A DNA stretch of 63,803 nucleotides, the filler included, from Parasitella parasitica NRRL 2501 (taxonomy: Eukaryota; Fungi; Mucoromycota): the NCBI GenBank assembly GCA_025201805.1. It is 14 parts of 14 records of this genome, joined end to end, with 100 filler letters (N's around TTAATTAATTAA, not from the genome) between each part and the next. Parts side by side here need not be neighbours in the genome. Positions count along the whole stretch, not along the records: positions 6,962 to 9,279 come from MU619568.1; 13 more parts are not named here. One strand, written 5' to 3'. Within the stretch, counting starts at the first letter, position 1; each line of letters begins with the position of its first letter. This document shows, piece after piece, positions 1 to 48,262 of this stretch. The translations under genes and the position numbers were made by a program. The notes under the pieces are model-generated. The model was not told the DNA's origin. It searched no databases and saw only the letters and a program-made list of their open reading frames with translations.

Positions 1-63
1 AAAACATCTTCATAAGCATCCCCATAAACATCTTCATAAGCATCTTGTTTTTTTGTTTATTTT

Positions 64-480
64 TGTTGAGGATACAGGTCAAATCTTAGCGGTAATGAAT
101 TATACTCTGTATAATACATCATAAAGCGAGCATGAGTAGAAATGCGTAGTAGAATGGAATGACTTTATTTAGACATGGCAAAGAGACATAAGTGGTGCCA
201 TTGAATGGCTGATCTTTATCCCAGTACAAAGTGGTGCTATCTTATGACATTTGGTTCCTGAGGTCGGTGTTAAATCCTGATGAATGTTCTTCCATCAAAG
301 CTACTAGGAACAACACTCTATCCTTTATACGTATCTATGCTTTTGTTTTACTGTTAACTCGGAAACTCTTATCCATCAAGCTCCTAGGGATTGGTTCAAG
401 GTGTACCCAATTATCCCTCATCCTAAATCATGGTTCTATTGCTGCGGCACTGTCAAATAACTATAAAACCTTCAAAATAT
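64..480 (-). mobile_element. Possible solo LTR (right boundary uncertain)
   Basis: On the minus strand there is TATAAA, then AATAAA, ending ...CCTCAACA at 64. No clear TSD or second terminus. Confidence 0.3.
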
Positions 481-575
481 ACACTAGTTTAAATCTTCAT
501 TCAATCTTGGAATAGCAAAATAAATATATTCAGTTCTAATTGTATTTTCTCTGTCTATATTTTGTTATTCAAATA

Positions 576-686
576 ATTTTGAATCGTTACCATGATAAAA
601 TTGTTTCGAAAACATTGGTGTTATATTTGTCGTGGCAACGATTTTGGCCAGAAACAAAATTGGCGAAGGCATCCGGAAAATGTCCA
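576..686 (+). repeat. Inverted ~111-bp copy of the 5' end of the 1121-2906 gene
   Basis: ATTTTGAATCGTTACCATGATAAAATTGTTTCGAAAACATTG...GAAGGCATC matches the reverse complement of 2812-2922 with scattered mismatches. Confidence 0.9.
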
Positions 687-1120
687 AAAATGACACTGGC
701 CCATGGAAATGAGGCTGTCGCAAAATTAAGAATCTTCATAAGCATCTTCATAAGCATGCATTGACAGTTTGACTGCAATTTGCACGCTATTGACAATCTG
801 GCATTCTCATTGGTGTTGGCATTCGATCGCACACCGTTTATCTCGTCTATTGTTTTACATCGTATTATTATATCCAGTCTTTTCTTTCCCTTATCATGAC
901 ATTTAGAGGACTTTAAATAAAACTCCGAGTACGCTCCCTACACAAAAAAAAAGTCTGGCTGCATTGTATTCATACGTCTGCAGAAACTCCTATACTATAT
1001 CACACGGCAGAACACATGAATATTCAAAGTTCATTGCGTACAGGAGAAATTTGTACTTGATTTGTTTTATTGACAATAATATCCACTTTGATTCGCTGCT
1101 CCATGAGAAAAATTGTTTAT

Positions 1121-2906
1121 TCATATGGCGAAGATTTGACAAACGGTGCGCGTTACTTCGGCATTTGCAGTGATGAGAGAGGGCGATATTTCATTCGCCA
1201 AATTGGTCAAAGGACGATTGAGTTGTTCATTGCCAATGATGTTGATGGTTGAGCTGTCATTGAACAGACTGAGAATCTCATAAATAATATTCCAAACTTT
1301 GCCGTTCGTCTTGCATTTTTTTTGTTGATCATCAACATAATGTCGGCTAAGGATAGCGTTTTCACCTTGTTCCCAAACAGATGCTGCGACTGCTCGAAAC
1401 AACTGGGATGCTATTTTTGCATCTGAATCCTTGTTCGTACCAGTGTTGCGGTCGGCAAGTGTCCAGATCGTAACAGGCCGCGAACACAGATCGTTTGCAA
1501 AGATGGAACATGATCGAGAAAGAAGATAAGTGGTGGTTCTGTGGAACTTGGACCGCACTTGTCGTAATTGCGCATACTCGTCAAATGGATATAATTCGCG
1601 GATGGACAGATCGTTGAATCCTCGTTGTCGCAGATCGCCATACCATTCAATAAACGATCGTCGGATAAAGATGATGGTATCTTTGCTGACACTGAACCCA
1701 TTTGTGCTGGATGGACCGACAGCTGGGGGCTGATTTTTGTCAATTCGGATGGATGATGTTATGAGGACATTCATTGTTTTCGTGCCAAGTTCAAGTTTAT
1801 GACTGTTATCTTTTTCGACAATGAACAGCTCTACATTTGGGTATTTCGTAGTTGGATGCGGTAAGGTTGTGTTTAAGGATTGATTGCGCTTGATCTTGGT
1901 TTGTTCATGATGAGCATCCAATGTGGGATATCGACTGTACACTTCTGCACAATTCACAAGCAGACCTTCACGCCTATTGACAAGAATCAGTCCCTCCATT
2001 GCACGAGCACAAACTACACGCATCCACGGACGCCGTGTCCAATCAATGTTCAATATGGTGGCGATATTTTCATCCATTTCCGTATAATCTGTTGCACAGA
2101 TACATGTCAGATGGCTGTTAGCGATCAGATGGGATAAAATGGATGCAGCAGGTCGTTGGTCGCCTGCATCCAACATTTGGAAATAACTGCGCTTCATCGG
2201 TGTGATTGCTTTGAACGCTGGAGCCTGGTCACCAAATTGTGAAGCCAAGAGGCTAGAAATGGCTGCGGAATGACCAAGCATATTGTGTTCCCTATTGTTT
2301 TCATCAAAGATCGCCATTGGGTGCAAATCGGCGAGTTCTGCAATCAGCAATTTCTTCTGCTTGTCGTCATTCGGTAAATCCATTGCACCCATTGCGGAAA
2401 GCGTCGCGTCTGAATATGTTCGTGTTTCATTGTGTGTTATGGCTGTTGATTCGAAGTGCAATGGTGGTTTACTGGGCATAAGCTCGTCAACAGGCAGGGT
2501 CACGTCGACATCTTCTGCTTCGTCTTCATCCTCGCTGTGTTCGCTCGCAGCATCATAATCTTTACTGAGTCTGAGAAACAATAACAAAAGAACAAAAACT
2601 TTTCAGATTAAGGCAAAGAACACGAAATAAAATGACTTACATTTTAAAATGTTCAGGAACATGGCAATCCAATTCTTCGAGTTCCGAGAAATAGTCGGGA
2701 CAGGAAGGGCAAACAAATACAGTCTTATCAGCATCGTCTTCATTTGAAACAAACAAATGATCTTTCACTTTCCGAACGTTGCCTTTCACACCAGCTTCAA
2801 GTTGAATATCATGAACATTTTTCAGATGCCTTCGCAAATTTTGTTTCTGGCCAAAATCACTGCCACGACAAATAAGACAGCAATGTTTTCGAAACAATTT
2901 TACCAT
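1121..2906 (-). CDS. C2H2 zinc-finger protein with putative AAG/MPG-like DNA glycosylase domain (2 exons, ~571 aa)
   Basis: Exon 2906-2641 encodes CLIC-x13-H-x4-H and CPSC..H..H fingers. A GTAAGT...CAG intron (2640-2571) joins it in frame to the 488-aa ORF. Block-wise similarity to 7374-9055. The glycosylase call rests on manual motif alignment only. Confidence 0.75.
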
Positions 2907-3049
2907 GGTAATGATTCAAAATAATCAAAAAAAAAAAAAAGCTGATAATGAGTAATTTTCTGGCTGGTGGCGAGCTGGCCTTCGAAAAAAGATGCTTGGT
3001 GCACCAACAAGTTTGGTGCACCAAAAAAAATCATTTTGAAGCAGCGACG

Positions 3050-4610
3050 AAAATCAGTTTGGTGTACTGTCCAAAATGCTTTTGGTGCATCTGCATAATA
3101 AATTTCGTGCAAAAATCAAAATGTATTTGATGCACTTTTAGTTCTTTTCTTACCACAAATATTAGCTTATTTTATGGATCAGTTTATTTTCGAAGATGGG
3201 AAAGAAAATCTCTACGATGAGCAGGGTGAATCAGTTGCTGTTCTCGCTATGGAAGTAGACGACGAACAATATCCTTTGGATAATATAACCAACTTCAGTG
3301 ACTATACGAACCTGAAGCCACCAGAAAAGCCGATCAAGAAAATCAAAGAAGATGGTTTGAAACAAGAAGGTGGAGATGCAGAACTCGAGGAACCCAAGGG
3401 AACACGGTATCGATCATACAAGAGCGAAGATAAAGCCAAGTTTTTCTTTCTCGTATACGAGAAGCAAATGAGCATCCGTGCAGCCTGCAAAATGGTCAAA
3501 ATCCCTCCCAGCACTGGCCAAAACTGGTACAAGAAGGGTGTGGAAAGTTTGGAGAACGACGAAGAGCTTTCTCACAAAAAAGTGGCCAAATCGTTTGGAA
3601 GACCACCAAAACTTTGTGAGGAGCAGAAAGAGGCTTTGATCAGCATGGTGGATGCCAAACCAGATTTAGTCTTGGAAGAAATGATGGATCAACTGAATGC
3701 TCAATTTATGGGTCTTGAAATTCGAAAGTCTGCTTTGCACGAGTCCTTGACAGAGAAATGCCAATTTTCGCTTACAAGGGCTCATTTCCACTCGGTATAG
3801 CGAAATAGTCCTGAAAAGATTGAAGAAAGATGCAATTGGGTCAAGCAATGGCAAGAAACTGACATGGATTTTTCAAGTAATTGCGTATTTATTGATGAGG
3901 CTGCATTCCATATCAACATGAAGTGCAACTATGCATGGTCGGTTAAAGGAGAGCGATCTGTTGTAAAGGTTCCCAAGACCCGAACAAAAACCACGACAAT
4001 TATCGGGGCCATAACACCCTTTGGCGTGATTAATGTTAAGGTAAAGCTTCCGAAAGTTTATGCAGCACCTTCGAAAAAAAGAAAAGCTACAGGTGGCCCT
4101 ATTCAGACTCAAGCAGATAAGGGAGGAACTGTAACTGGACATACTTCAATTTTGTCGCTAGCACCTTGGATGTGATGGATGAATATAAGGAGTTTGAAGG
4201 CCATTATTTGATAATGGATAATGCACCTATCCACAAAAACAAAGACATACAATTGTATATTGAAAGCAGAGGGTATAGATGTGTCTATATCCAACCTTAT
4301 TCCCCTGAGCTTAACCCAATCGAGCAATTTTGGTCCATTGTGAAAAGCAAACTTAAAAGAGTGGTACTTTTGGAAGAAGAAACACTGTCCACTAGAATTT
4401 CTGATGCTTGTAACAAGGTGATGATCAGCGATCTAGAAGGATTTTGCTGATACTCTGCTTTCAAGTGGGATGACTGTTTAGAAAAAAATGTAACATTAAT
4501 AAACCTACAAATTTGGTGCACAATGCACCAAACACCATTTTGATATTTGCACGAAATTTATTTTGCAGATGCACCAAAAGCATTTTGGACAGTGCACCAA
4601 ACTGCTTTTT
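3050..4610 (+). mobile_element. Tc1/IS630-type DNA transposon with ~85-bp inverted repeats
   Basis: 3050-3134 is the reverse complement of 4524-4610. Iterated (T)GGTGCA(CC) motifs lie at both ends, and the repeats enclose a transposase. Confidence 0.85.
3174..4500 (+). pseudogene. Tc1/IS630 DD34E transposase, disrupted
   Basis: HTH/GRP region, then FIDEAAF, MDNAPIH and YSPELNPIE with 34 residues between the second D and E. In-frame stops at 3798-3800 and 4448-4450, and a frameshift near 4140. Confidence 0.92.
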
Positions 4611-4747
4611 GTTAGTGATGTTTATGGGGATGCTTATGAAGATGCATATTGTAGCCAATAAAAATAAGCGATTTCAGATTATTTGTTGCGTTTTATTGGC
4701 TAATATAACGCGGCATTTTAAAAGATGCTTATGAAGATGCTTATGAA

Positions 4748-4847: not shown

Positions 4848-5231
4848 AATCACTGGAGAAAAAACAGTGATTCTAGTTATAGAACAATCACTGGATAAAA
4901 ACAAATAGCACTTACCACAAAATTATTATAGCACTGGTACGTTTTGCTATGAAATCACGGTAATAAACATTTATTCAAAATTATCTAAAAAACTTTCAGC
5001 AGCAATTATATATCACGTTGGTGTACGTTTCTTTTTGTTATTATAGATAGAAAAAAATCAATTTTATTTGAAAATAGGCATATATTTTTGTCTGAAAAAA
5101 TTATTGGAGTATAGAGGAACTGACACAAAAGATATTATTATTATGATAAATGTTCATAGCAGCTGTATACATATATGATGTTTTCCGCATATGACAAGGT
5201 GCTATATTTTTTAGATACTGGATTTTTCTTT

Positions 5232-5390
5232 TGAGATTACGCATACTGGTTTTCAATTACGCATCAGCTTTTTTGAGTTACGCACCAGACAAATCTCAAT
5301 TGCGAATTTTTGAATTACGCATATGAAACTTTTGAAGTACGCATTAAAAAATTCGAATTACGTACAAAAAAATCCAATTGCGTACTGGAT
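5232..5390. repeat. Iterated ~21-22-bp subterminal motif (GA/CA)ATTACGCA
   Basis: About eight degenerate copies directly downstream of the Tc1 remnant at 5411-5704. Confidence 0.7.
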
Positions 5391-5410
5391 ATTTTTATTG
5401 ATTTGACAGA

Positions 5411-5704
5411 CTTAAAGCAAGCGCTCACGGTTCAAGCACCTCTCAAAAAACGAATGGGCATGTATTATCCATCCTTCGCAGTCGCTCACTATAACCTTCT
5501 TGGCTGACTCAATAATACGGTCACTGAAATTTGATGTTACAGTGAGAGTATCACTCTCTTGATACCAGCCTTCACCTTCGACCAGAACTCCTCGATTGGG
5601 TTGAGAAAAGGAGAGTAAGGGGAAAAATAGGCTGCCTTATAACCACGAGATTCAATGAGGTTAGCTCCCTCTGGGCTCTTGTGAATTGGAGCATTGTCCA
5701 TCAC
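5411..5704 (-). pseudogene. Tc1/IS630 transposase C-terminal remnant
   Basis: Minus strand reads VMDNAPIHKSPEGANLIESRGYKAAYFSPYSPFLNPIEEFWSKVKAG. It is cut at 5705 by an LTR. Confidence 0.9.
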
Positions 5705-5892
5705 TGTTGGATCAAAAGATAATAAAAAACCAAAGGTTAACGAGATACGAAAACTAAAGATACTTTATTTAAGATCGAAATTGCATCTGCTATTCATACT
5801 TTTTACAGCTACATAAATTTATGTTGACTTATTTCGATTACTAATTGACAAGACTAATTCACAATGACAATCTACTTGACAGGGTACGATAT
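5705..5892 (-). mobile_element. Partial LTR (family shared with 21794-22235 and 31208-31641), truncated by a CACTA end
   Basis: TGTTGGATCAAAA...TTAACGAGAT...GCATCTGCTATT...ACAGGGTACGATAT recurs in all three copies. Confidence 0.75.
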
Positions 5893-6200
5893 CACTATGG
5901 CGTCGCCGATGTTCTTATTAGAATATTGATGTGCATGCACGGGAACATTCTTTAAAGCCAAAAAAAGTGCTTATCGAGCTAGGTTAAGGCGATAAATGTG
6001 CTCATGCGAGAACAAAAATTGAAACATCTCATGATCAAATTTTTATGCTCAAATGAGCACATAAATTACTAGTTTCATAGGCTTAAAATTACGCTCAAAA
6101 GGCTTGAAAAAATGTGCTCATGAAGCGAAAATGTGCCCGTAAACTCAAAAAAATGTGCTTAAAAAAGTAAAATTTGCGTACAAAAATGTAGCTTTAGCTT
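5893..6200. mobile_element. CACTA (CMC/EnSpm)-like transposon terminus with ATGTGCTC-type subrepeats
   Basis: Begins CACTATGGCGTC. Related termini at 13158 (forward) and ending at 30096 and 31167 (reverse). Confidence 0.65.
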
Positions 6201-6639
6201 TTGTTTATTTCTCAATTTTTGTAGTATGAACCAGTAATTTATTATTGCGTTAATTTCATATCGCCACATACAGTATTGTCTTGATTATGTAGCCTTTGGT
6301 TGACACAGGCAATGATGGAGAACAGTGCAAGATTAGCTATTACCCGATTCGAAATTGAAGCAGCTACTGAGGTACTGTATTTTGAGGACAATTCCGCCGA
6401 TTAAATTTTTATTTCGTGAAATCTCAAATTCAATTTCGTCAGAATTACCTTTGAAGTTCGTAATAGGGGAGGCTAGCTATACTGTAGTGCTGTATTACTC
6501 TGGATCACCTTGTTGAATACGTAAAAAAATTATGATTTAAATAATGAATCAAAAATTGATGGTGTATCCATCTTCTTCTTCACACTTTACAGTATATCGC
6601 ATACAATTTTTCAAATAAAAGTTACATACATTTTTAGCC

Positions 6640-6861
6640 ATGTCAACAAGTGAAAATTCAAACAGAAATCAAAATGTCACAGATCAAAGACATCCACACT
6701 CAAAGCGAGGGCCCTACGGGAAAACAACTCTTGAAAAGCGTACGAAAATCATTGATCAAGTACTGCAAGAAGGTTATTCACCAGCAGAGGCTGCAAAGGA
6801 GAATCGTGTTGCAGTTTCGACGGTAAATACAATGGTAGATGTCTTTATCAAAGAAGGGCGC
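6640..6861 (+). CDS. Transposase N-terminal HTH fragment (IS630/Tc1-like), cut by gap
   Basis: KRGPYGKTTLEKRTKII...SPAEAAKENRVAVSTV fits an HTH pattern. Confidence 0.6.
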
Positions 6862-7029
6862 NNNNNNNNNNNNNNNNNNNNNNNNNNNNNNNNNNNNNNN
6901 NNNNNTTAATTAATTAANNNNNNNNNNNNNNNNNNNNNNNNNNNNNNNNNNNNNNNNNNNNAAACAGTATCGTTTGTTTTTAGAAAAGGGTATTACACAA
7001 TTCAGGAAAGTAGTGTCGCATCTAAAAGG

Positions 7030-9278
7030 TATAATGTGTCCGTCCAAGCTGTCCGTTCAGCCAAAATATAAAAAACCTATAATGCGTCCGTCCATTTAGG
7101 CTGTCCGTCTATTTAGGCTGTCCAAACTGTTCGTTCAGCCAAAATATAAAGAGGCATCATGTGTCCGTCCAGTCAAACAAAAATATTGTAAAAATTCTAT
7201 TATTTCTTTATTCAACATCTGTAAGCATTTGGTGATAGAAATAGGAGAACTCTTTAAAACTTGATACTTTATTCGAAAAAATGGACGTAGTAATAAAAAT
7301 GGATGCAATGATATTTAACCAACATACCTGTTACACTGGAATGGCATACTAAAATATTTGTAACTGACTGAATCTATGTCCTTTTAATTGAAATCGAAAT
7401 TGATTTCATCACATTATTGTTCGCATTTGCAATGTAAGGGTTTAAAATAACTGCAAGTTTACACAATTCATCATTCAATACTTTGTTTTCAATTATCTTG
7501 ATTTGTTTTGATTCATCAAACAAATCAAGTATATTCTCCATGCATTCTTTTACTTTCTCACCCTTACATTGCGAAACAAGATTCTGTATCATCTTTTCTT
7601 CAACCGTGGCTGCTTCCTGGTATTTTATAACTCGAATAGCAATGTTATGAAATAGTTTTGAGGCTATTCTTCCATCAGAATATTCATCATTTTGACTATC
7701 AAAGTTGCAGTATGTCCATATTGTGTAAGGCTGCATTATATGATCATTAGTATCAGTCGAGCTTCCTCTACTGCTAAAATATGTGGAATATTGATGAAAT
7801 TTTGATCGAAGTTGCCTCAATTGGTAAAGGATATTGAATGAATAAACTTCTTGCGCTGATTCGTCTTCTGCCAATTTTTTTGCATCGTACCATGCTGTTT
7901 CGTCAATGTATATTTCAATCATCCCAGCATCTTCTCCGTTTAATACAAAGTTTGACGTTGTTGGCCCTACTTCCGGAAGTAGGTCTCTGTCAATTCTTGT
8001 GCTCGAAGTTACTAAACCATTAAATACTTTCGTTCCCACCAGCAGTTTTACGCCATCCGGATCTCTTACTGTCTTTAAACAAAGGTTTTTGTATCTAGCA
8101 TTGTTTAGTGGTAAAGAATTTGGTGGAAACATATTTTTTTTTATGTTAAATCTTTCATAATGACTGTCGATCGTTCTAAAACGTCCATATACTTCAATTG
8201 TGTTGATGAGGAGTGTTTCACCAGTCATTCTATTGACCAGTATAGCCCCTGAAAGAACACGGGTGCAGAAAAATCGCATTTGAGGCCGAAAAGCCCAGTC
8301 GTTATTTAGTAATTTGCATGTATCGTCGTCCATCTCGAAATATTTTTTTCCATTCAAATATTTATGCATGTAACTACTTGCGATTATGTTTTGAAGGCTA
8401 ATACTTCCTGAAACTTGACAATCATTAATGCTTTCTCCCAGACACTCGCATTTTCTTTTGACTGGTGAACAATGTTGGATCTGTGGTGGTTGTTTCATTC
8501 CTATAATTTTGTTTATAACATCTTTATGTGCCAGTGCATTTTCTTCGTTATTATTTGAATCAACAAATGCAAAAGGCTCCAAATCTAAAGCCCTTATTAT
8601 TTTCAAAGACGATACTTGTTCATGACGGCTTCGGTGTATTAACCCACTTGCATTTAAAATTGCATTGTTATTATTACGAAAAGTTGGGCTGGTTACTTCA
8701 ATCTGCTTTTCAGCAATTACAGGTTGTGATGAACGCGGTACTACTGTCAAACAGAGCTCCTCTTCCTCGTCAACACCATGTTTTTCCTCTTCCTTGTTGT
8801 GTATATTTCGGAGATGCTTACTGATTGACGAAGTAGTAATGTAAAGACGCGAACATAATGGGCAAATGAATTCACCATTCTCGTTTCTATCGCAAATAAT
8901 AGTCTCTACTGAAGAATTTAGCACACATTTCATAAGACCTTTAATATTTGCATACCTTTTCCTACTTGTACGTCTACCGTCTGGAGATGGTATTCATATT
9001 TATGTTTCTTGGAAGAAACTTTTTCTTCGCATTGTAAGCAATTTTCGTGAGACATTTGTTCCAAAGAAAAATGAAAAGTAAAGAAACGTGGCGTAATTCG
9101 TTTATTACTTTTCTGTGAAGGCACCTTTTTTTTATCTTGGCTTGGACGCACACATTATAGGTTTTTTTTAATTTGGCTGGACGAACACACATTTTATTTT
9201 GGACGGGCCGACAGCTTAAATGGACGGACCTATTATAGGTTTTTTATATTTTGGACGGACCCATTATGAGTTTTTTAT
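7030..9278. mobile_element. TIR-type element with GTCCGTCC-iterated inverted arms enclosing the 7374-9055 gene
   Basis: CCAAAATATAAAAAACCTATAAT..GTCCGTCCATTTA(G/A)GCTGTC at ~7061-7104 matches the reverse complement of ~9211-9254. Many GTCCGTCC copies on the left and GGACGGAC-like copies on the right. True termini are not resolved. Confidence 0.75.
7374..9055 (-). CDS. C2H2 zinc-finger protein with putative AAG/MPG-like domain (2 exons, ~544 aa), paralogue of 1121-2906
   Basis: Exon 9055-8956 (MSHENCLQC-x13-HLQTVD, a degenerate finger) is joined in frame by a GTATGC...CAG intron (8955-8909) to the 519-aa ORF, which has CPLC..H..H. Collinear blocks are shared with the first copy. Confidence 0.75.
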
Positions 9279-9379
9279 ANNNNNNNNNNNNNNNNNNNNN
9301 NNNNNNNNNNNNNNNNNNNNNNNTTAATTAATTAANNNNNNNNNNNNNNNNNNNNNNNNNNNNNNNNNNNNNNNNNNNN

Positions 9380-12025
9380 GTTTTATTTGAATAATTTCTC
9401 ATTCTGATAAATCATACACTCTTCATCCATGTCCCGCCATGCTGATATCGCTCCATTTGCCCAGTGGTTGCGTACTTATTTTACAAACTGTCATCCTGAA
9501 GGCCTTCCAACGTTCCCTCGGAGTAATACATGCATTGATTACATTTTTGGTCATTGTTCACTTGCTCCTTGGTTGGCCAACAGTCAGTTGTTGTATATGC
9601 CTAGTAGGTGGACCGATCACTGTCTTTTGACTGTTGATTTACTTCCTGCTAGTGCTAGCATTGGTCCTGGTAGTTGGCGGTTCAACCCTACACTACTTGA
9701 AGATGAAAGATTTATTGCGTTGTTAAATGCCACAGTGTCATTGTTCTTCTCCGATACTGCTGATAGTGGGTCTAGGGGTAGTGGGTCTAAGGGTGTAAAT
9801 ACTAGTCATGGTGGTAGTGGCGACCCTGAAGGCACTGTTGCTAGATGGGAATCCTTCAAGTTGTTGCTCAAGTGCTGTGCACAAAAGTACACTCGAGGCA
9901 TGAAGTCGCGGTTCAAGAACAAAGTCTTTACCTTACAACTGGAACGTATTCGGGCTCTCTCATCTAATTCTGTATCGGGTGTTCAGACTGGTGATGCTTC
10001 AATAGTAGGTCAAGCTGAAAGAGTGTCTCCTGCTTCAGGTGATTCTGAGCAGGTCAGGCAGCTTGAAGTTTTGATTGAGAATCAGATACAGAAAGAGACT
10101 AGTCAGAATATGCTTCGCTCTGCTACTCGTTGGCATGAACAGGGTGAGCGTAATAACAAGTATTTCTACCGTGTGATCAAGAAACGGCAGTCTCAACAGA
10201 CTATCCAATCCTTAAAGTGCTCTACTACTGGGGATATCTTGGTGGATGCAGCAGCTATCAACAGGGAGGCTCAAGGTTTCTACCAAAAGCTATACACTCC
10301 TGATGCTGTGGATGCTGAAGCCATCGATACTCTCCTAGGGAATATTCCTCCTGAAGTGAGTCTATCATCTTCGGATGGGGATAAGCTGACGGAGATGCCA
10401 AGTCGTGATGTTGTCTACCTTTTGCTCGCTCACTCTCCCAAGTCTAAAAGTCCTGGTCTTGATGGTCTACCTTTTGAATTGTATCAATATCTTGCTGGTG
10501 TCTCTTCTGCTTTTCTTGACTTGCTTGTGGATGTGTTGGGCGGTGCCTTTGATGGTGTGTTTCCTCCGTCGTGGCAGCAAACTAGAATGGTACTCTTGTT
10601 CAAGAAGGGTGACCCGCAGTTGCTGATCAACTGGAGACCTCTGTCCTTTATTAACAGTGATGCCAAGTTATTTACAAAGCTCATTGCTAATCGTATGAAC
10701 AAGGTCTTGCCAAAGTTGATCAATCCTTATCAAACTGGGTTTCTTCCTCATCGTCTGATCTCTGATAATGGCTGGCTAAATCAATTGCTGATGTCTCACT
10801 TACGTACTGTCGCTCCAGATTTGCCTCAAGTTGCTGTCTTATTAGATCAAGAAAAGGCTTATGACCGCGTTCACCCCGAGTATCTTCGTCTTGTTTTGCT
10901 GCGGTTTGGTTTCCCTGCTATTTTGGTATCTTGCTTGTCGTCTTTGTTCTTTGGAACAAAGATTAATGTTTCTATCAATGGTTGGCTTGGTGCTCCTGTT
11001 CCTCAGTTGAGAGGTCTTCGTCCGGGTGATCCATTGTCTCCATTACTGTTCAATTTGGCGTTTGAGCCACTTCTTCGTTCTCTGCTTGCTTGTCCTGGTC
11101 TCTCTGGTGTCACCCTCTCGCCTGTCAGTATCCCACAGAAATGGAAGCCTTCACCGGTGGAAGTTCGTGTGGATCTTGGTGATGGTTCCTGCAATCGACA
11201 ATTGGACTATGTTAGTCGTACTGGTGCTCCGTCTCCTGTCAAGATTCTAAGCTATGCTGATGATCTGGAAGTGTTCTTGTCGTCCCCAGATGAGTGGCCA
11301 GTCTTGTTGTCTCTATTGGATCTATATAGTCGAGCGTCTAACGCGAAGGTCAATCTTAGCAAGACTGTGCTGGTGTCTCTTTCTGGTAGGCCGCATTCTG
11401 CTTATGTTGCTTTGGCGCATGCTGCTGGTATCCAGTGGCATGATGCTCTCTCAAGTGATGCGGTCCGATACTTGGGTTATCCCTTGTATCATACTGATAG
11501 TCAACTGAGTGATTTTCTAACTGACTTATTGGTAAAAGTCCAAAGGCACAGTAACTTGTTGAAGCAAAGAAATCTCTCCATTCGGGGAGCTGGACTTGTG
11601 GCTAACTCGTTGCTGTTGTCCAAGGTCTATCATGTGTTGCGTGTTGTTCCTGGTGGCCCTGCTACTGAGTCGTGGGTGATGGCTCTCAAGAAAGTAGTTA
11701 GGGAGTATTTGGTGTCGTTTCGTCCTGGTGTTGCTTGGTCGACCTTGTGTCTTCCTCGCAAGTTTGGTGGTGTTGGTTTGGTGGATATAGCAGATCAGAG
11801 CTTGGCTCTGCATCTTATCTATTTGCAACGCTTGTTGCGTCCACCTTCTCATTCTAATTTTGTCACTGCTTGGTTGGTTTACGCCTTCCAAGTATACACT
11901 GGTCATAAATCTGTCTTGCCTTGGTTCTCTTTTCCAGACAAGTTCAAATTTCGTGTATCTTCTGTGCCTGTCCTTAAACATCTTAGCAATCTTCTCCTGA
12001 TAAAACTACCCAAGCTAGTTCCTTC
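9380..12025 (+). mobile_element. Non-LTR retrotransposon ORF2 (L1/Tx1-like, APE endonuclease + RT), truncated
   Basis: Motifs IDYIF, TDH, WRFN, GERNNKYF, PGLDGL, NWRPLS, DQEKAYD, GLRPGDPLSP (the Q of QGD is replaced by P), YADD, RYLG and GGVG. The 3' end is replaced by an LTR-like insert at 12026. Confidence 0.95.
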
Positions 12026-12810
12026 TGTGAAATACATTCACCATGATGATCTGCATTCCACTTCTAGATTCATCCAGTTACCTTAAATTGATATAAACTA
12101 CATATGCGCACAGATAATAAGATGTGCAATACAGATTTATACTATATAAGATATAAGCTAGAGATGGCACCATTAAGATGGATGACGCTATAGACTGATA
12201 CTTATATCTCGACACGAGCCTTAGACATTTACTAGATTTAGTATATGCTACGAGCTTATGCTATATAAGATCTATGCTTCAGATGCGTATTCCCAGTTTC
12301 TAGATACGCACTACAAGACATATACTTATATCCATAATACTAGCTACAGATACATCATGTACTACAGACTTGTACAATATGTGCAATGCTATAGATATGC
12401 TTATGACATGCTATAGACGTGCTACATATACCGATATATGCTAAGATGAATACAAAGTGATATACACTCAGACATGTACTATTAATATAGACTGGATAAG
12501 ACTATACAAGGAATGATATACGCTTATGGATCGATATTAATAATCTTCGCATAGAAGATTGATCAGGGTACTACCTCGGGTAAAGTCTATCTCCTCACTC
12601 AAATAGATTTAAGTTATCTTGAGTCTGCTGATATGTAGGTTAGCACAAAGTTAAGATGCTAGTTACGCAGTATTGTCGTACATGTTAAATTGCGAGAATA
12701 GAACATTTATCCACAGTTTAAGTATATAAAGGTTCATCTACCTGGCCAGTAGATGAACCAGAGCTTTATACACCTGTCGATTTGATAATAAAACCTATAC
12801 CTTATCAAGT
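12026..12810 (+). mobile_element. LTR-like sequence; second near-identical partial copy at 13739-13964
   Basis: Starts TGTGAAATAC. TATATAAAG at ~12723 and AATAAA at ~12787. The first ~225 bp recur at 13739. The 3' boundary is uncertain. Confidence 0.65.
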
Positions 12811-13280: not shown

Positions 13281-14066
13281 GTTGAGATGGCTCATTTTTT
13301 AATTATATAATATAACTCCTGAGACATTTCAATTTTTTTTGTGCTTGTAGTAACATTTGCTACCAAATATTTGTTGAGATATTGCAAAGATCGCATCTGT
13401 TTTGAGTAAAAAAAGTTTATTTATGCTCGCACGATCATACTAATGTTCATTTGAGAGCAAAAAGTGACGAAGAAGTACCTACTTTTAACCAAAGTGTTGT
13501 TGAAGATGATAAAAAAAAAGCCGCTGGTAATAATAATGCTAGCACCAGTAGCAATACACTTGAATAAAATATATTTTTGTTTGCACATGCCTTGCTTTCA
13601 AATGTTGAGACGACCTTGTAGCTGTGCTTTTCTATTGGCTTTTTACTGCATGCTTAGCGCAAACATTGCATATTGTGATGACCGAATGCATATTTTAGCT
13701 TCTTTGTTAGCTTTTCCTTGGTCTTTTTCTTTTGTTTTTGTGAAATACATTCACCATGATGATCTGCATTCCACTTCTAGATTCATCCAGTTACCTTAAA
13801 TTGATATAAACTACATATGCGCACAGATAATAAGATGTGCAATACAGATTTATACTATATAAGATATAAGCTAGAGACGGCACCATTAGGATGGATGACG
13901 CTATAGACTGATACTTATATCTTGACACAAGCCTTAGACATTTACTAGATTTAGTATATGCTACNNNNNNNNNNNNNNNNNNNNNNNNNNNNNNNNNNNN
14001 NNNNNNNNTTAATTAATTAANNNNNNNNNNNNNNNNNNNNNNNNNNNNNNNNNNNNNNNNNNNNTA

Positions 14067-14547
14067 CAGTAGTCGCTCGATTTAAGGCTACTTTTTTTGC
14101 AAGCTTTTTTTAGCCTTATATCGAACATAGCCTTATATCGTGCATGTGACTATTACTTTTAAAACAGTCACATGTATAGTTGATACCGTACTACAGCTAT
14201 TAGATTAATTTGACACACGTCCAGTCTAATCCATTTACTTCTTTATTTTTAAAAAAGCATATTTTGGCAAACAATTATACTATGAGCATTAATCAACAAT
14301 CAAGAGAGCGTCTCACTATCGAGCCAAAGTACGAAATCTGTATGCATAATGCTCAGTTTCCAACACAACCCAAATTTAAATACCGTCAATTTACTGTAAA
14401 ATAAGGCTAAAATTTCGAAAATTTTCAGCCTTATATCGAATAAGGCTAATAAGGCTAACTCCCTGCTTAAAAAAAAATTCATAAAGAATTGTAGCCTTAC
14501 ATCGTGAATAGCCTTATATCGAACAGCCTTAAATCGAGCGGCTACTG
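14067..14547. mobile_element. MITE (Tc1/pogo-type) with TA TSD, inserted in a Fanzor gene
   Basis: TA|CAGTAGTCGCTCGATTTAAGGCT ... AGCCTTAAATCGAGCGGCTACTG|TA, with internal AGCCTTATATCG repeats. Confidence 0.92.
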
Positions 14548-15934
14548 TATAGTATTCGATTGAGGACAAGCGACGTATGTCAGTACCACCATGATAAGAG
14601 ACGAAAGGATCCCGTCTTCCCGGGTCTACAGTGCATGGACGGAAATGCTTGTTCACCTCTTCGCTTGAAAAATCATCTAACTCTAGACAGATATTGTCTT
14701 CTGGAGATGATGGAAGCACTCTTCTAGCAAATAGAACTCTGCACGTATAGCCATCAGTGTACAATCCGTTAAGAAACATTCTTCCTTTTTCTTCAGGCAA
14801 TGCTAGAAGCTTTTCACAACTATATTTTTTTTTTATCAGCAGCTTGATTCATAGATATGTGTATTAGCAGTATGTACCTTTGAATACCCAGCTTTTTGAA
14901 AGCAAAAGCTTGATAGAAGCACCTTTGTTGATGATCAAAAGAGGATTCATTGGCTTGCTTCTTTTGCTTGGCCTCTCGAAAAATTCCGGTCAGGTTCTGG
15001 GCATCAATCTTTATGAACCGCCAGTGCAATGAGGGATTTGGGAATAAACTAAAACGTCTTGGAAGCGGGGGCTTCGTTGAGTCGGCCTTGTCCTTTTGAG
15101 CAGCTTGGGTCCTGTATATATCATCGTATTTGTTGAGAATATACCGTAATGCCGGTAAAATTTTGAAGGGTTCATTGTTTAAGCTTTCTTTAGTCAGTGG
15201 AAGCGTGGACATGCGATTTTTGACCTCTAAAATCAAAGGATTTAAGAAACTTGTAAGATTACTGGCCACATCCGGATCAAATAGGGCAAGAATATCAACG
15301 GATACAGATGAAGGTTGGGAATGTGTAAGCACTTGATCGTATACGTGATTATATACCAAATTCTTGATACAGCCGATCTTCGCATCATAATTTATGTAAT
15401 TTTAGTATAACAATTTGAGAAATTGAACATGTATATTGAAGTGCTTGTTATTATATATCGTTACTTACGGGGTACTCTGTCTTCAGTGTATATATGAAGT
15501 AGTTACATATGATGTTTTCAAAGTTTTCAATATAGTAGTTGTTGTATGTTGTTGCGACAGTCTCGCATGCAGTTGAAAAAGATTGTCCATAATTCTTTAA
15601 TCCATTTTCTGAAACAAACAAGCTACCATTTGTAGTAGCAGACAAGTTAACAAAAGAGCTCGCAAGTTGATCCACATCTAGGTTCTGGCCTGCAGGTCGT
15701 TCCTTTTTCGTATCTTTGTAAGCCTGCAGAGTTGGCTTTACTTTATCTGAGCTGCCCCTAATAACTCTTGAAATAGTATACCAAAAATTTTGATCAAAGA
15801 AGTCATTCGTCAGCTTGGTTGGATGTTGCAGAATAAAATGATTTACAAATAGTTGAGCTTTGAACAAGACTTCACGGACAAAGCTTGATATGTCCTTGAC
15901 TTTTTTTAAAGCATTGGCTTTGTTTGGAGTATCA
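14548..15934 (-). pseudogene. Fanzor1 (eukaryotic TnpB, RNA-guided RuvC nuclease), N-terminal to RuvC-I part, with introns
   Basis: FKAQLFVNHFIL, RFSLFP..HWRFIKID, LYTDGYTCRVLF and RuvC-I-like TVDPGRRD, then RLSSIEYY. GT-AG introns start near 15468 and 14878. Interrupted by a MITE; the start is lost in a gap. Confidence 0.8.
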
Positions 15935-27385: not shown

Positions 27386-27485
27386 NNNNNNNNNNNNNNN
27401 NNNNNNNNNNNNNNNNNNNNNNNNNNNNNTTAATTAATTAANNNNNNNNNNNNNNNNNNNNNNNNNNNNNNNNNNNNNNNNNNNN

Positions 27486-29656
27486 TTTTCAGTTAGGCGG
27501 TTGATGATGATGCTTAATTGTTTTGCATGTAGTTCCATATCATCCGAATGTGTTATACAATAAACATCATCAATATATGTCAAACAAAAGGGTAAATCAC
27601 CTAGGATATCGTCGAGTAAGCGACTCCAGGCGCTGCCAATAAAAGTAATCCCGTATGGACAGGAGGCAAAGCAGTAAGCAGTATTGCGGTGCTGGAAGCT
27701 GGTTTTGACCTGATCTGACACATTTAGGGGTAGTCTCAGGTACGCGGTCGTAACGTCAATACAAGAATAGATTGCAGCACCTGTTGCTTGTTTGAAGATC
27801 TCGGAAGGCAATTTTATGCTATAATTGTCAAGACTCGAGGGCAGTAGAATACTGTTGAGTTCTCGAACGTCCAAGCATGTCCGCCAGGACATAGTACCGT
27901 CACCCTTCCTTTTTGGGGCAAATGTTACAGGATTATTCCAAGGGCTAGGAGGGGCTTTTTTAATGATGCCCTTTTCCAACCAATCTTTCACTGTTTCGTC
28001 AAATACGGGCATTAACTTCTCAGCAATTTTGTATTGACGGCGATTTCTAGTTTCGTTTGGTATCGTATCAAGCTTTATTAGAGCCAGAGGATGAGGACAT
28101 AGTTCTCTAACATCAATAGCTTGATTTCGGTTAATGGCAGGTTCAATGGCTTTCATCAGACGTGCATGCTCACTCTCCGTACCAGCGTTCGATATATTAG
28201 GTACGTATTTTTCATCGACAACGGCATCATCATACAGGATTTTATTATCATCCCAATTAAAGGCGACGCCTGCTAATGTAATGCCCAGTTTTGAGAAGAT
28301 ATCACACCCGAAGAGCGAGTGTTTATCATTTCCTAATTCCTTCATGATGAAGAAAGAATGATGCACATCACGACCATTATATTTGATATGGATGTCGTCC
28401 GTTTTACCTAATAACAGTATATTCTCATTATTTGCCAGTGTTATGTTTACATCGGGGCAAGGGTGGATGGTAATATCGTATTTATTACACAAGTGAGAAG
28501 ACAGGATGGAGATATCAGAGCCTGAATCGATCAGAGCTAGTTACCTATGTATGCCCAACAATAAGAAAGGAGATAATGGAGAATATGGATTTTGATTTAG
28601 TACGTCATCATTTGTATCGACCATTTGTCTTCTCTTGGTAGTACTGATTAGCATACTACACAAAAGATTGCCACATTTACCATTATTATCAGATGATGGG
28701 ACATCGAGGTCATTCATTGTGCTTTCATCGAGGAATTCAGCCATGTCATCGTCGTCAGTAAGAGGATTGATCTGACTCAGGATTTTCATAATATTCTGAG
28801 CGCAGTCAGTCAAATCCTGTTCGTTCACAGGATGCATATTGCTCTGCCTAGCTGTACGCACCATGTTGACACCCGCTGTTTTGGCTAAAGTGTATGGATT
28901 GTTATGGTGGGGATTAGTCAAGTGTTCGGTGAAAGACTTGCGTCTCATTGCAAACGTACCCGTGCGATTCATGTTGACAGGCTGGTCTATGCCCTTTGCA
29001 GCGTTTTGTCGTGCATTTTGAAAAGCAATGCGTTCTGGACAGAAATGACCCGGGTAGAACTTGACTTTTTCACAGTGAGTACACAGTGATCCGGTCTGAG
29101 GTGGGGCAGCAGTGTTATGTCCCTTGCGATCTATTCGCTTGAAGGGGGGCGTCTTTGCCTCATCATTAGAAGCGGCTGGTCCGACCGCCAGATTGTCAGA
29201 GCGTCCACGCTTTCTATCATTGGCGCTCTTGGTCTGTTTTTCTACCTCGACTTGGTATCGTTCTAACAGATCCCGATGCACGGAGGAAGAATGAACTTCC
29301 AAGAGTTCCATGATCGACTGCAAGTTTTCATGAGGTAAAATAGCGTCGCTATTGACGGGAGGGCTAATACTACCTAGAGCTGCCCGCATCGTGGGTAGCT
29401 TTGCTTTCAAATATGTTTTCACATACTCCTTTAATGCAGCGAAACACATGATTGCCATAAAGACAGAATCAGGTACTTGGGCTTTTGCCATCAGGATGAT
29501 AAAGCGTTGAAGGAATTCCATCAATGGTTCGTCAAACCTTTGGCGCAAGCTAATCAACTCTGAAATATAGTCGAATCTAGTGTTTGTCTCCATATATTTT
29601 TTGAGCAGTTTTGCTTTCATGTCATTCCAGGATCTGTAGGCCCTGCGATTTTGTTT
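27486..29656 (-). mobile_element. Ty3/Gypsy LTR retrotransposon internal region (gag, protease, RT)
   Basis: Gag with LRQ..DE...F and CxxC..H.C. Protease LIDSGS. RT motifs SPWNNPV, WRTCLDVRELN, PYGI and YIDD. Order PR-RT, with one in-frame TAA at 28541-28543. Confidence 0.92.
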
Positions 29657-30096
29657 NNNNNNNNNNNNNNNNNNNNNNNNNNNNNNNNNNNNNNNNNNNN
29701 TTAATTAATTAANNNNNNNNNNNNNNNNNNNNNNNNNNNNNNNNNNNNNNNNNNNNCCTTTTTTTCAGCCATTTGACTTTCGAAAGGTAAACGTGGTTAT
29801 TTTTTAATGTAAAGAACGAATCGTTCAAGAACGTTGATATAAAAAAATGAGAGTTATATGAATAACGATTATTTCCAAAGACAATTAAATAAAGAGACTA
29901 CAAGCGATTATATCACGGAGAACGTAGGGTCTTTATTAAAGATTGAAAAGGAAGCCAGGATTGCTCTGGTCCTGGTTTCTAAAAGTCTTTATACAATTCC
30001 ATTTGAATGTCAGTGTCAATATTGGAATTGAGATGAGATTCAACCTTCAATTAATAGGCGAAAACCGACAATGAGAACATCGGCGAGGCCATAGTG

Positions 30097-30544
30097 GAGC
30101 CCTAAATATAATCATCCTAGCTGCCATATCATACCAAGGTGTTGAGGATGTCACAGCAAAAATGGTCAAAGGCAGTACGAATTCAGAGCTTTTTCTTGAA
30201 CTCATAAAGCAGATCGTTGCAAGTCTGGATAGAAGTAATGCAGCCCCTCATTACTTCATTATACTCGTATACATGCCGCCGAATTGATTAAAAATTATTT
30301 TAGATATGCAACAAGGCATCATGTTCACTTTTTGCCAGCATACAGTCCATTTTTAAACCCTATTGAAGAGTGCTTCTCTAAATTGAAAGGCTTGGTCAGA
30401 AGAAAACCTGGATTGGATGCTAAAGAGCTCGTAAATTACATTGGAGAATGCAGCAAACAAATAGTTAGTGATAATTGCCAAGGTTGAGTTGATCATAGCA
30501 TCACTTTTTTTAAAAAATGCCTAGATGAAGACGAGATTTACTGA
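30097..30544 (+). pseudogene. Tc1/IS630 transposase remnant, abutting a short CACTA-like end (30073-30096)
   Basis: IILAAISYQGV...GSTNSELF and FLPAYSPFLNPIEECFSKLK, with stops and deletions. Confidence 0.85.
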
Positions 30545-31045
30545 ATATCGTACAATAAAATTCACATTTTTGTAACTTAAACTTTCACAGTTTAAAACAG
30601 TGACTATCTCAGAAAAGTTTTGATTTCTTGTTTTTGAATGAAAAATCCGGTATTTCACAATTACATGTCATATTACACAAAATATCCCTTTATTATATTG
30701 ATACAAACACAAAACAATAAACACACCTGTTTATCTTGTTACAAGCTATAATATAATATTGCCTATTGTATTATATTTAAATCTACTATCTCTGTGTAAA
30801 TACATCACACCTATCTGATACTCAATAATTATATTTGTATATGACAAAATTGTCAGGAAGATGTTTAGTGGACTCGTGCCGGAGGCAGTGCTCCAGCACA
30901 ATGCGAACAAGAAGCGGGTCTTCCGACCAACAGTGCCGGTCCGGCNNNNNNNNNNNNNNNNNNNNNNNNNNNNNNNNNNNNNNNNNNNNTTAATTAATTA
31001 ANNNNNNNNNNNNNNNNNNNNNNNNNNNNNNNNNNNNNNNNNNNN

Positions 31046-31167
31046 ACGCACATTCTGGGCAAAATCATTTATGTTCTCACAAGCACATAAATGCTCCCAT
31101 GACCCTAATAACGTTCCCATTTGAGCACATTTATGTTCATCGAGATCATCCAGGAGGCCATATAGTG
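31046..31167. mobile_element. CACTA-like terminus (reverse orientation)
   Basis: Ends ...GGCCATATAGTG; its reverse complement matches 13158-13275. Confidence 0.7.
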
Positions 31168-31207
31168 CACAGGGAAATGTTGTGCAAATGTGATATTTTA
31201 ACGTAAT

Positions 31208-31641
31208 TGTTGGATCAAAAAAGAAAATAAAAACCAAATGTTAACGAGATGCAGAAACTTAAAGATACTTTTTTTAAGATCAAAATGGCATCTGCTATTT
31301 ATACTTTTTACAGCTACATAAATTTATGGTGACTTATTAATAGATTACTAATTTTTGACAAGACTAATTTACAGTGACAATCTACTACTTGACAGGGTAC
31401 GATATGAGGTTATACAACAGGGGCTACACGTCTTTGATCTGACAGTGCCTTAACCTTTATCCTGGTGTTCAAATCTGTGTGACTTACAGGAATAACCTTC
31501 TTGATTTGAAACAGAGACTTTATTCTCCAATTTACACAAGCGTATCACACCCCATCATTGGAAGTACATTGCCATAATCTCCTGTCTATAATATTACGGC
31601 GGATCACACCTGCTGTACCCATTTTTGTGATCTGGCACAAC
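31208..31641 (-). mobile_element. Solo LTR (same family as 5705 and 21794)
   Basis: Collinear similarity with 21794-22235 along its length. Confidence 0.7.
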
Positions 31642-32259
31642 CGCATATTAGAAGATTAGCTGCTGCATCAATTTTCTATAATTAATATGTTGTTTAAGCT
31701 TTGAGTTGAACTTTAGTATTCGCAAACAAACAACGCCTATCGTTAAATGACCAAAAAAACCAGGGCGTAGCAAATAATTTTGATATTTAATGCGACAGTA
31801 ACTTACCAATACATCGACCATTTAGATTGAATTTGGAGCTGTCATTTTGAATTGATTGAGTTTTATCTGCTTTTATTATTGCATTCGTAAGCAATAGTAA
31901 TATTAAAGGTTTCGTAAAAAGAGGAGAAGAGAAAAATTGAAAATAAAAACAGTTTACATCATGGTATAATAGTAATCTACTGTAGGTCACATAACCAAAT
32001 CTTTGTAGCCAGGGAAACGTTTGCCACATTAGTTGCTGTGCATACTCACTAGCTGCACTAAATGAACGAATATAAAATGCACTGCACCAATGCTGACAAT
32101 AAACATGATGCTTTTCTTTTCGAGATGTATATCAATTTCATCTTTGTGTCAAAATACANNNNNNNNNNNNNNNNNNNNNNNNNNNNNNNNNNNNNNNNNN
32201 NNTTAATTAATTAANNNNNNNNNNNNNNNNNNNNNNNNNNNNNNNNNNNNNNNNNNNNA

Positions 32260-32433
32260 TTGAAGTGTAAAACTTGCAATATTTACTGGAATCGCGATGC
32301 CGTGGCCTCGAAGAACATGCTCACCATTGCCACATCAATTTGGTGTGGAAATGGCCGCCCCCAGGTCTTCAAGAGACATACCGCCACCTCCAATGTGGTT
32401 GTTGCTGCTCACTCCGGTGAGTCAGCAACTTAA
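32260..32433 (+). CDS. Fanzor/TnpB C-terminus (Zn-ribbon CxxC + RuvC-III), 5' part lost in gap
   Basis: Not in the ORF track. It reads LKCKTCNIYWNRDAVASKNMLTIA..IWCGNGRPQVFKR...*, and CxxC-x3-WNRD-x2-A-x2-N is the TnpB/Fanzor signature. Confidence 0.88.
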   Translation: MKCKTCNIYWNRDAVASKNMLTIATSIWCGNGRPQVFKRHTATSNVVVAAHSGESAT

Positions 32434-32480
32434 AGATATTGCAGGTAAAAAGCTGTAGCAATTCTGATTCTTCTGAAAGA
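32380..32480 (+). ncRNA. Candidate Fanzor omegaRNA scaffold
   Basis: Hairpins GCCAC/GTGGT, GTTGCTG-CTCAC-TCCG-GTGAG-T-CAGCAAC and ATTGC..GCAAT overlap the ORF 3' end, where Fanzor omegaRNAs typically lie. Boundaries are inferred. Confidence 0.5.
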
Positions 32481-32489
32481 TACTAACAT

Positions 32490-32578
32490 TGTCTCCATGT
32501 TCGTACTCATGTCCCATTTTCATCTTGTTGTCCCATTTTCGTATTCGTGACCCATTTTTGTAATCGTGTCCCAACTCA
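32490..32578. repeat. ~20-bp periodic GTCCCATTTT motif array
   Basis: Five degenerate copies just downstream of the Fanzor end. Confidence 0.7.
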
Positions 32579-32640
32579 ATTTGGAAATGACCAAAATTTA
32601 TTTTCATTGGCCCAACCTAGTTTCGTTAACTGTAGTAAAG

Positions 32641-32794
32641 TGTCACCTAAATCATCTCACATACAAATGAAAACTAAGGTAGCGATTGTTGTCGATTACT
32701 TGATTTTTTTCTTGTTGTCGACAACAAGAGAAAATTAAGGTGGTTGTCGCTAAACCGCTATCTCATTTGTATGTGAGACGATGGTTTAGGTGGC
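32641..32794. repeat. ~155-bp foldback (MITE-like hairpin)
   Basis: TGTCACCTAAATCATCTCACATACAAATGA pairs with TCATTTGTATGTGAGACGATGGTTTAGGTGGCA. Central perfect palindrome CTTGTTGTCGACAACAAG. Confidence 0.8.
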
Positions 32795-34478: not shown

Positions 34479-34645
34479 TTGTCAAGATACTGCCAAAAAA
34501 ACAAGGTCTTTTTGCTGATTTTATAGCAAGTTGTGTGGATAATAATTAATCAAATCTTATGTCTATAAAAGTATTTAGTTATATACTTGTGGAGTTTTAT
34601 TCACAAAGTCCGTATCACGTTAAAATATTATAGCACATTTGCACC
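34479..34645 (+). repeat. Dispersed repeat, diverged copy at ~37136-37326
   Basis: TTGTC(A/G)AGATAC..., TTTTGCTGATTTT, GTGGATAAT, TGTCTATAAAAGT and TCACGTTAA occur in the same order in both. Confidence 0.75.
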
Positions 34646-35993: not shown

Positions 35994-36254
35994 GTGTCAA
36001 GTGGATGGCCTATCATTGAAACTTGACATAAGGTCTTTATCCGGGTCATACAGGAGCATGTAGGCTGCTTCTACTCATCGACTGTGCTTACCCTAGCAGT
36101 TCTTGAGATGGGCCATTTTATCCGAAGCTAGGAAGTGCGGTAAGGCATTTTTTGGCTTTTAGGGGTGGTATTCCTTGAAATTCTACCAATTTCTATTCTT
36201 GGTCGAATTTCAAGCCCCGCCTAACATCAAAACAGGGGGAAACCCTGTTTTTTT
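35994..36254 (+). ncRNA. Putative structured RNA of unknown family
   Basis: Several consecutive stems, 10-bp loop-loop complementarity, a terminal hairpin followed by a T-run, and no ORF. Confidence 0.45.
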
Positions 36255-38385: not shown

Positions 38386-38580
38386 ACTTTTTTTTTTTTT
38401 TTTTTTTTTNNNNNNNNNNACAGCAAGAAAGGAGAAAAGAAAATCAATAATACTGGGCTGGTGCTGCTTTTAGGCATAGGCGATTTGGTGTTACATAACA
38501 AAAAGTGAAGCACTGCAGCAAGCAGACGATAATGCTCATCTTTGCATGAAATATGATTTTAATTTTATTAAAACACTACA

Positions 38581-43082: not shown

Positions 43083-43293
43083 TTTTGCAAAATGTGTGAA
43101 AATATGGAAAGAGGCAAGGGAAAAAGGTAAACAAATGAAAAACGAGTTTATTTTGCGGCTGTATGTTTTTGTTGTGCCACAAGATATTTTATTACTGGTT
43201 GTGTGTGAACATGTCTGTGTGTCGGTAAGGCCATGTTCAATCATCCCATCAGAGGCATCTCACCTAAGGATCTCCGCGAAATGTTTTACCTTG

Positions 43294-48225: not shown

Positions 48226-48262
<37 letters not shown>

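Follow-up and report, generated by a model that had tools for sequence, protein, structure and literature searches.

Likely Non-Autonomous TIR DNA Transposons of Parasitella parasitica Carrying a Glycosylase-Like Zinc-Finger Gene

Introduction

In Mucorales, Fanzor1 elements without a transposase (ROr-4, PBl-3, MCi-4) that possess MuDR-like TIRs have been described (PMC3627910), and the two elements of Parasitella parasitica NRRL 2501 (assembly GCA_025201805.1) reported here resemble them in being likely transposase-less TIR elements from the same order with one gene for a nucleic-acid enzyme, while differing in the cargo itself, which is an RNA-guided nuclease there and a predicted glycosylase here. 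DNA-modifying cargo, proposed to counter silencing, is also found in several lineages of fungal DNA transposons encoding TET/JBP proteins, whose TET gene, unlike the genes considered here, sits beside a transposase, has no ends of its own, and relies on another chemistry (PMC12730594, in the main text of which the word “Mucor” does not appear). The VANDAL/VANC system of Arabidopsis likewise combines an element-encoded protein with short iterated motifs that differ between families, although VANC binding and the accompanying 5mC loss are experimental results (PMC5735166), whereas the elements presented here have no transposase, and element 1 showed no majority-methylated cytosine in one library (run X17). 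As for the protein per se, human AAG/MPG (PF02245) is comparable in the predicted fold of residues 221-435, in a Glu followed by a Tyr (+2) and a His (+11), and in the spacing of a further Tyr (+34); unlike AAG/MPG, the protein here has no Pfam/profile match, shows neither the Tyr162 hairpin nor Arg182 in any evident form, and possesses as extra parts two fingers plus a small alpha/beta and a helical C-terminal domain, its gene being multi-copy and set between inverted arms.

No report of early-diverging fungi whose transposons hold a gene for an AAG-fold glycosylase was found by title or start of abstract in a literature collection without most subscription papers and Repbase, and the arms may already be recorded in Repbase or in the supplements of PMC3627910 and PMC5751038.

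Results

Inverted Arms of the Two Elements

The window, i.e., the whole 63,803-nt stretch of DNA that was analyzed, consists of short contigs strung together by artificial N44-TTAATTAATTAA-N44 linkers, with gene 1 and gene 2 on separate contigs (1-4747 and 6962-9279); because linkers separate these contigs, the two copies being neighbours was ruled out as a fact shown by the assembly.

That copy 2 lies between arms of iterated units, as the initial annotation had it, was borne out. The left arm, on the 3' side of the gene (7024-7176, + strand), has five inward-facing TCCGTCCA-type units (at most one mismatch) at 7039, 7052, 7087, 7104, and 7164 (span 7039-7171), and the right arm, on the promoter side (9126-9279, - strand), has five at 9143, 9178, 9200, 9221, and 9252 (span 9143-9259), the observed arm statistic of 5 comparing with a maximum of 1 when the contig was shuffled 300 times. 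Of the arm pairs, the best spans 45 nt at 93% (7061-7105/9210-9254). A 31-bp tandem unit comes last in the right arm, at the contig end, and the outer end of the left arm is cut at the junction with a piece of a different repeated element (6962-7027, no strand assigned) that abuts or interrupts it and shows loose ends in runs X1 and X8; the loose ends of the left arm itself lie at 7002-7027, and run X12 has further units outward of the 7024-7027 junction.

For copy 1, the bracketing by an iterated motif held in part. Perfect CATCTTCATAAG units number five in the window, all of them on contig 1 (at 5, 29, and 743 on the + strand; at 4633 and 4728 on the - strand), while the whole-window count of 18 with two mismatches is borderline, being reached by 4 of 100 shuffles. 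Units do stand on both sides of the gene, i.e., as a left arm of 2.6 CATCTTCATAAG units (727-757, +) and as a right arm split into a stub (2988-2997, -) and a longer piece (4617-4747, -) by a Tc1/IS630-type element (2998-4616, +, ends approximate), which was inserted later and has its own inverted TGCACCA arms (77 nt) and a broken DDE_3 transposase (3102-4450). Since a contig of run X8 joins 2987 to 4639 and thereby skips the Tc1 element (an empty site), the CATCTTCATAAG arm belongs with gene 1, and the candidate reading of these arms as a property of the Tc1 transposase was ruled out. What may not belong to this copy is the CATCTTCATAAG array at 5-45 (+), which is separated from gene 1 by a MITE-like insertion of very high depth (64-570, no strand assigned; no TIR found in it, loose ends at 64 and 570) and by an inverted, degenerate copy of the gene 1 start (560-686, +, 87%), and which therefore may belong to a second copy, a truncated one, as its promoter-side end. 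The summed depth of the 64-570 insertion, also present in run X7, is ~29,000-49,000 in X1 versus 156 (~200-300x single copy). Copies 1 and 2 had been described as having the same architecture, which is not so as assembled, with the Tc1 element splitting the right arm of copy 1 and the 5-45 array adjoining the insertion and the inverted fragment.

The inverted arms around both genes are real, and inverted arms around an element are what a TIR transposon is recognized by. The right arms of both elements run into contig ends, and no true terminus or TSD was seen for element 1 or 2, whose ends are either contig ends or repeat junctions. The heptamer TGTCGCA is found directly outside the left arm of both elements (716-722 and 7014-7020); with eight copies in the window, this is possibly chance.

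In run X1, where ~150 corresponds to single-copy DNA, the summed contig depth reaches 4981 at 9224-9279 versus ~150-300 elsewhere, and the bins with element 1 arms, which also touch neighbouring repeats, show 3151 and 3894 versus 156 for the gene. Such depth is no copy number and may reflect many more elements or long tandem runs beyond the contig end.

Structure of the Two Genes

The only long ORF between the arms is the zinc-finger glycosylase-like gene. Gene 2 (- strand) comprises exon 1 (8956-9055), which holds finger 1 (8987-9040; C6-C9-H18-H23, with a shortened helix), a 50-nt GT..AG intron (8906-8955), and exon 2 (7374-8905), which encodes finger 2 (8799-8864), a disordered linker, a small alpha/beta domain, the AAG/MPG-fold core (7701-8345, -, residues 221-435, with the motif E271-x-Y273-x8-H282), and a helical C-terminal domain; its spliced product of 543 aa is intact and identical to P0001, a hypothetical protein from Parasitella parasitica. 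Gene 1 (- strand) has an exon 1 (2641-2906) encoding finger 1 (helix Q-K-Q-N-L-R-R), a basic linker, and an acidic finger 2, a 70-nt GT..AG intron (2571-2640), and an exon 2 (1121-2570), giving a spliced product of 571 aa with no internal stop, an open frame by which the possibility that gene 1 is frameshifted was ruled out. Both introns are skipped by contigs of run X7, that of gene 2 between ends CT..AC and that of gene 1 by record 19 with 0 other differences, while the other compared runs keep them, the joint of gene 2 being absent from three DNA runs; X7 is presumed to be an RNA run, and among the runs with the gene none is recorded as RNA. The two genes share 35% identity over 475 columns.

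A Predicted AAG-Type Core

The “glycosylase-like” label given to these genes holds at the level of predicted fold and motif, owing to the AAG-fold matches and the E-x-Y/F-x8-H motif, and was not borne out by sequence profiles. The predicted model has a pLDDT of 90 at full length and of 96 for the core alone. When the core was compared to 48,161 chains with VIA-align, human AAG (1ewn) came first (Z 10.4, rmsd 4.0 A, 168/200 residues aligned, 11% identity), followed by a second AAG match (7xfh, Z 9.5), with formyltransferase domains as the next fold at Z <=3.7; AAG was also matched with the full-length model (Z 9.2), and the top nine Foldseek rows were all AAG chains, at E values of only 0.0056-0.046 and a TM of ~0.3. 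The predicted model thus places the core in the AAG fold (formyltransferase C-terminal-domain-like barrel), and we consider an AAG-type fold very likely. Two uncharacterised giant-virus proteins (BFVD A0A1V0SB56 and A0A3G5A9Y1) match the core model as well, at E ~0.005.

Sequence searches, on the other hand, gave no PF02245 match for either gene, nor among the 25 families listed, of 36, for 21 members, and the core falls into no family of Pfam, NCBIfam, or PADLOC; AAG was not found by the PDB sequence search, and an Atlas search returned weak zinc-finger leads only (<0.9). An hhalign comparison with 78 bacterial/archaeal MPG sequences was not significant (probability 0.12, E 0.46) and still set E271 against the Glu, Y273 against the Tyr, and H282 against the His of the MPGs. 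These three would correspond to Glu125, Tyr127, and His136, which are active-site residues of AAG (PMC12347255 and PMC13299579). The E-x-Y/F-x8-H motif is present in 119/126 family rows (9/135 rows being gapped there) and in 74/78 MPGs; as the latter were length-filtered from 120 loci fetched with an MPG motif (4/4 of those checked being PF02245), only the His of the three residues had not been pre-selected in them. Glu271 is found in 128/128 rows with a residue at that position, Tyr273 in 120/126, and His282 in 123/129. A conserved Tyr at +34 from the Glu matches AAG Tyr159 in spacing only, and no equivalents of AAG Tyr162 and Arg182 were found by spacing (no Tyr at +37, no Arg at +57 to +59), although conserved Arg residues at +4, +66, and residue 413 could stand in for the Arg182/Tyr162 set. 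It seems reasonably likely, going by the model and the conserved motif, that the family protein is an active glycosylase.

Other Repeats in the Window

Iterated arms are not confined to the two elements. The Tc1 element, with its HTH transposase and no fingers, has nine TGCACCA units, and a complete-looking, non-coding MITE of 485 bp (14065-14549) has ten AGCCTTA units, TA-CAGT ends, and a 25-nt TIR (96%), which makes iterated, family-specific arms ordinary here and in no need of fingers. Beyond the MITE, interrupted frames at 14549-15934 (-), with no Pfam or PDB sequence match, contain a DPG motif that we presume to recall a putative Fanzor1 RuvC start. A patchwork of transposon remnants (4848-6861) includes TACGCA units (5229-5385), a DDE_3 fragment (5546-5704, -), and an HTH start (6640-6861). 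Fold-back-like inverted arrays of a 24-bp unit are seen at a contig start (18194-18386), a non-LTR reverse transcriptase frame at 9411-12086 (+), and gag, protease, and RT pieces of an LTR retrotransposon at 27434-29704 (-).

Copies and Family Distribution

That arms and gene go together is supported by the empty site of the Tc1 element in X8 and by run X1, in which a second, variant copy (depth ~150-180, beside shared pieces at 292) extends through gene 2 into the right arm. P0004, a decayed copy with 94% identity, is found on a 94,649-bp contig from a source bearing the same species name, and gene 2 occurs at ~92% DNA identity in runs with two other organism labels (in X8, with 153 differences over 7161-9123), as does gene 1 in X8 at ~95%. 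In X8 and X12, agreement of gene 2 with the window ends at 9123, just inside the right arm, and a shared piece of 133-137 nt comes next; gene and right arm are thus not directly joined there, which counts against the reading we prefer. Taking both sides together, the gene probably moves with its arms.

The proteins belong to an unannotated family of early-diverging fungi that is old and wide, with 440 representatives (clusters at <50% identity) at E<=1e-10, the best 150 of which were listed, and 125 at E<=1e-30. Of 30 representatives looked up, 25 have a species name, all from Mucorales, Umbelopsis, Mortierellales, or Syncephalis, and two of the other five have cluster members named from those same groups. 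The core is 79-86% identical in Rhizopus, Benjaminiella, and Pilaira, compared with 35% identity between both genes of the window. The member from Syncephalis fuscata (P0042), a parasite of Mucorales, is outside Mucoromycota and groups near gene 1 with modest support (87/79). Family proteins were found in 0/37 candidates from viral contigs and 0/34 from prokaryotes, and a metagenome scan yielded one locus from 43 candidates (L001), a decayed fragment without arms; at L001:1-250, what by eye is the C-terminus of a Tc1-like transposase stands in place of the first exon of the decayed family gene. A synonymous/non-synonymous count of 7/15, from 22 coding sites within 40 of 215 difference rows, was set aside because the subset is too biased, and so were nine runs scoring 0.00 of the search words, which are no evidence of absence since one of them shares its sample with a positive run.

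Discussion

The two elements are likely non-autonomous TIR DNA transposons with glycosylase-like cargo. The fuller reading, to which we assign a probability of about 0.5, is that such elements are moved in trans and carry a gene for what is probably a purine glycosylase, held loosely to DNA by a single finger. Each gene would be the passenger of a cut-and-paste transposon unable to move by itself, placed between inverted arms of that transposon's own short repeat, and these arms would be bound by a family-specific transposase supplied from elsewhere; we propose that the arm motifs differ because the elements come from different transposon families, rather than because fingers have evolved to read them. 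The AAG-fold protein would flip a modified or damaged purine out of the DNA and excise it, with Glu271 activating water as Glu125 does in AAG, and one finger plus the basic linker would keep the enzyme on DNA at low specificity. Host base-excision repair would presumably take over the abasic site. What the element would gain from such an enzyme is the weakest step of this explanation.

The initial annotation had also considered the arms to be ordinary transposase-binding subterminal repeats, an option that fits better than recognition by the fingers, as the finger-less Tc1 element and the MITE carry like arms. No transposase with either arm motif was found in the window, and scans of viral contigs for the two motifs gave four single matches for one and zero for the other; as no transposase with these arms was found, the arm-binding transposase stays an inference. 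We nevertheless think it likely that a transposase reads the arms and that the fingers are not their main readers.

A different origin of the genes would be an expanded host family, serving repair or defence against foreign nuclei/elements, whose members are occasionally captured between transposon ends in Pack-MULE fashion. The age and width of the family, from Mucorales and Umbelopsis to Mortierellales and Syncephalis, its strongly conserved motif, the five divergent paralogues of Gongronella among the looked-up representatives, and the lack of a direct right arm in X8 and X12 would all suit such a family, as would the three near-identical family genes of Apophysomyces, which lie on one contig with close locus tags, fit tandem duplication, and to that extent speak against the passenger reading. 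Both genes of the window, however, stand between arms, whose motif differs from one to the other, fragmentary or decayed members are numerous in the family (P0004, L001), and near-identical copies are seen across genera, which makes occasional capture of a host gene rather doubtful.

The proposal that the arms are cognate, VANC-like sites of the fingers did not fare well. According to it, the fingers would bind the arm units of their own element and so deliver the glycosylase to them, where it would remove a silencing mark or nick the ends, and in its favour, fingers and arm motif do both differ between elements 1 and 2 (two elements only). Each protein has two C2H2-type fingers N-terminal to the core, while a multi-finger array that reads DNA has at least three canonical fingers joined by short, conserved linkers; of the two present, one is atypical in each protein, finger 2 of gene 1 being acidic (E-L-E-E-L-D-C) and finger 1 of gene 2 lacking four residues, so that one plausible DNA-reading finger per protein is left. 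Finger 1 of gene 1 (Q, N, and R at -1, +3, and +6) presumably reads GAA under the C2H2 code, and GAA does lie inside each perfect CATCTTCATAAG unit, yet it is a common triplet; finger 2 of gene 2 (helix T-T-S-S-I-S-K) would, by the same code, read GTT, yet the arms of element 2 hold 19 GTC versus 9 GTT. One finger reads 3-4 bases, too short for a family-specific 8-12-mer unless avidity helps, and iterated sites could indeed compensate for one weak finger; arms of the same kind on finger-less elements weigh against their being there for fingers. On a core tree of 47 rows (both genes together with A4-set family members that are at least 480 aa long and have few gaps), at least three changes are needed for the two finger types, which were assigned to 31 rows by eye. 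This suggests swapping of the finger module relative to the core, a point for self-targeting that has no bearing on what the targets are.

Nor does methylation lend itself to a VANC-like role. In run X17, which looks like a bisulfite-converted library, nearly all differences from contig 1 are C>T (323) or G>A (72); in 5/5 listed pieces of element 1, the differences are as many as the C (or G) count (e.g., 187/187 over 944-1964, including 47 CpG), and in 3/3 pieces of the Tc1 family they equal or slightly exceed it. This single library, its conversion inferred, gives the consensus (majority) state only and covers gene 1 with the left arm of its element, plus the Tc1 family, element 2 being outside it; within these X17 pieces, neither element 1 nor the multi-copy Tc1 family, itself without a glycosylase, showed a majority-methylated cytosine. 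Host 5mC on transposons that is removed by the element's protein, as in a VANC-like system, is thus not what X17 shows (one library, majority state), and the 5mC-based analogy is weakened accordingly. The targets of VANC are tandem repeats that differ between families, a likeness in favour of self-targeting (PMC5735166), but the substrates of AAG are mainly alkylated purines (PMC12347255), Mucoromycota mostly have little 5mC, Phycomyces excepted, and 6mA in Mucorales marks active genes (PMC11258239). Self-targeting through the fingers is therefore unlikely in our view, and the same low odds apply to the broader notion that the family, widespread in fungi, consists of base-excision enzymes naturally guided by fingers, a swappable finger module directing each to the arms of its own element to erase a methylated base or nick the ends, so that they would act as transposon-borne, self-targeting epigenetic editors.

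An AAG fold with altered catalysis, able to bind DNA or a modified base but not to cut, in the manner of a reader or chromatin factor, might be surmised from the distance to AAG (rmsd 4.0 A, 11% identity), the Tyr162 wedge and Arg182 not being evident, and the extra domains, but the invariance of Glu271 and the near-invariance of Tyr273 and His282 (120/126 and 123/129) make it quite improbable. Least probable is that the protein mobilises its own element, its fingers binding the arms and abasic nicks made by the glycosylase starting excision or copying: the absence of any other long ORF between the arms, the combination of DNA binding and catalysis in a layout resembling a transposase, and no fused transposase or other longer fused form among the longer proteins (a weak search) speak for it, whereas no RNase H/DDE, HUH, or recombinase fold is found among the structure matches, and a monofunctional glycosylase has no strand-transfer step. 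TIR elements with cargo and without transposase are, moreover, known in Mucorales (PMC3627910).

The notable part of these elements is the cargo protein family and not the pairing of arms and fingers: TET dioxygenases and Fanzor nucleases are known transposon cargo, to which a glycosylase with zinc fingers and an AAG fold would add another class. Very divergent AAG-fold enzymes with small DNA-binding modules may suit as starting points for glycosylase base editors. For early-diverging fungi, whose 6mA/5mC patterns are unusual, a base-excision enzyme that is mobile would allow the removal of marks to be tested directly.
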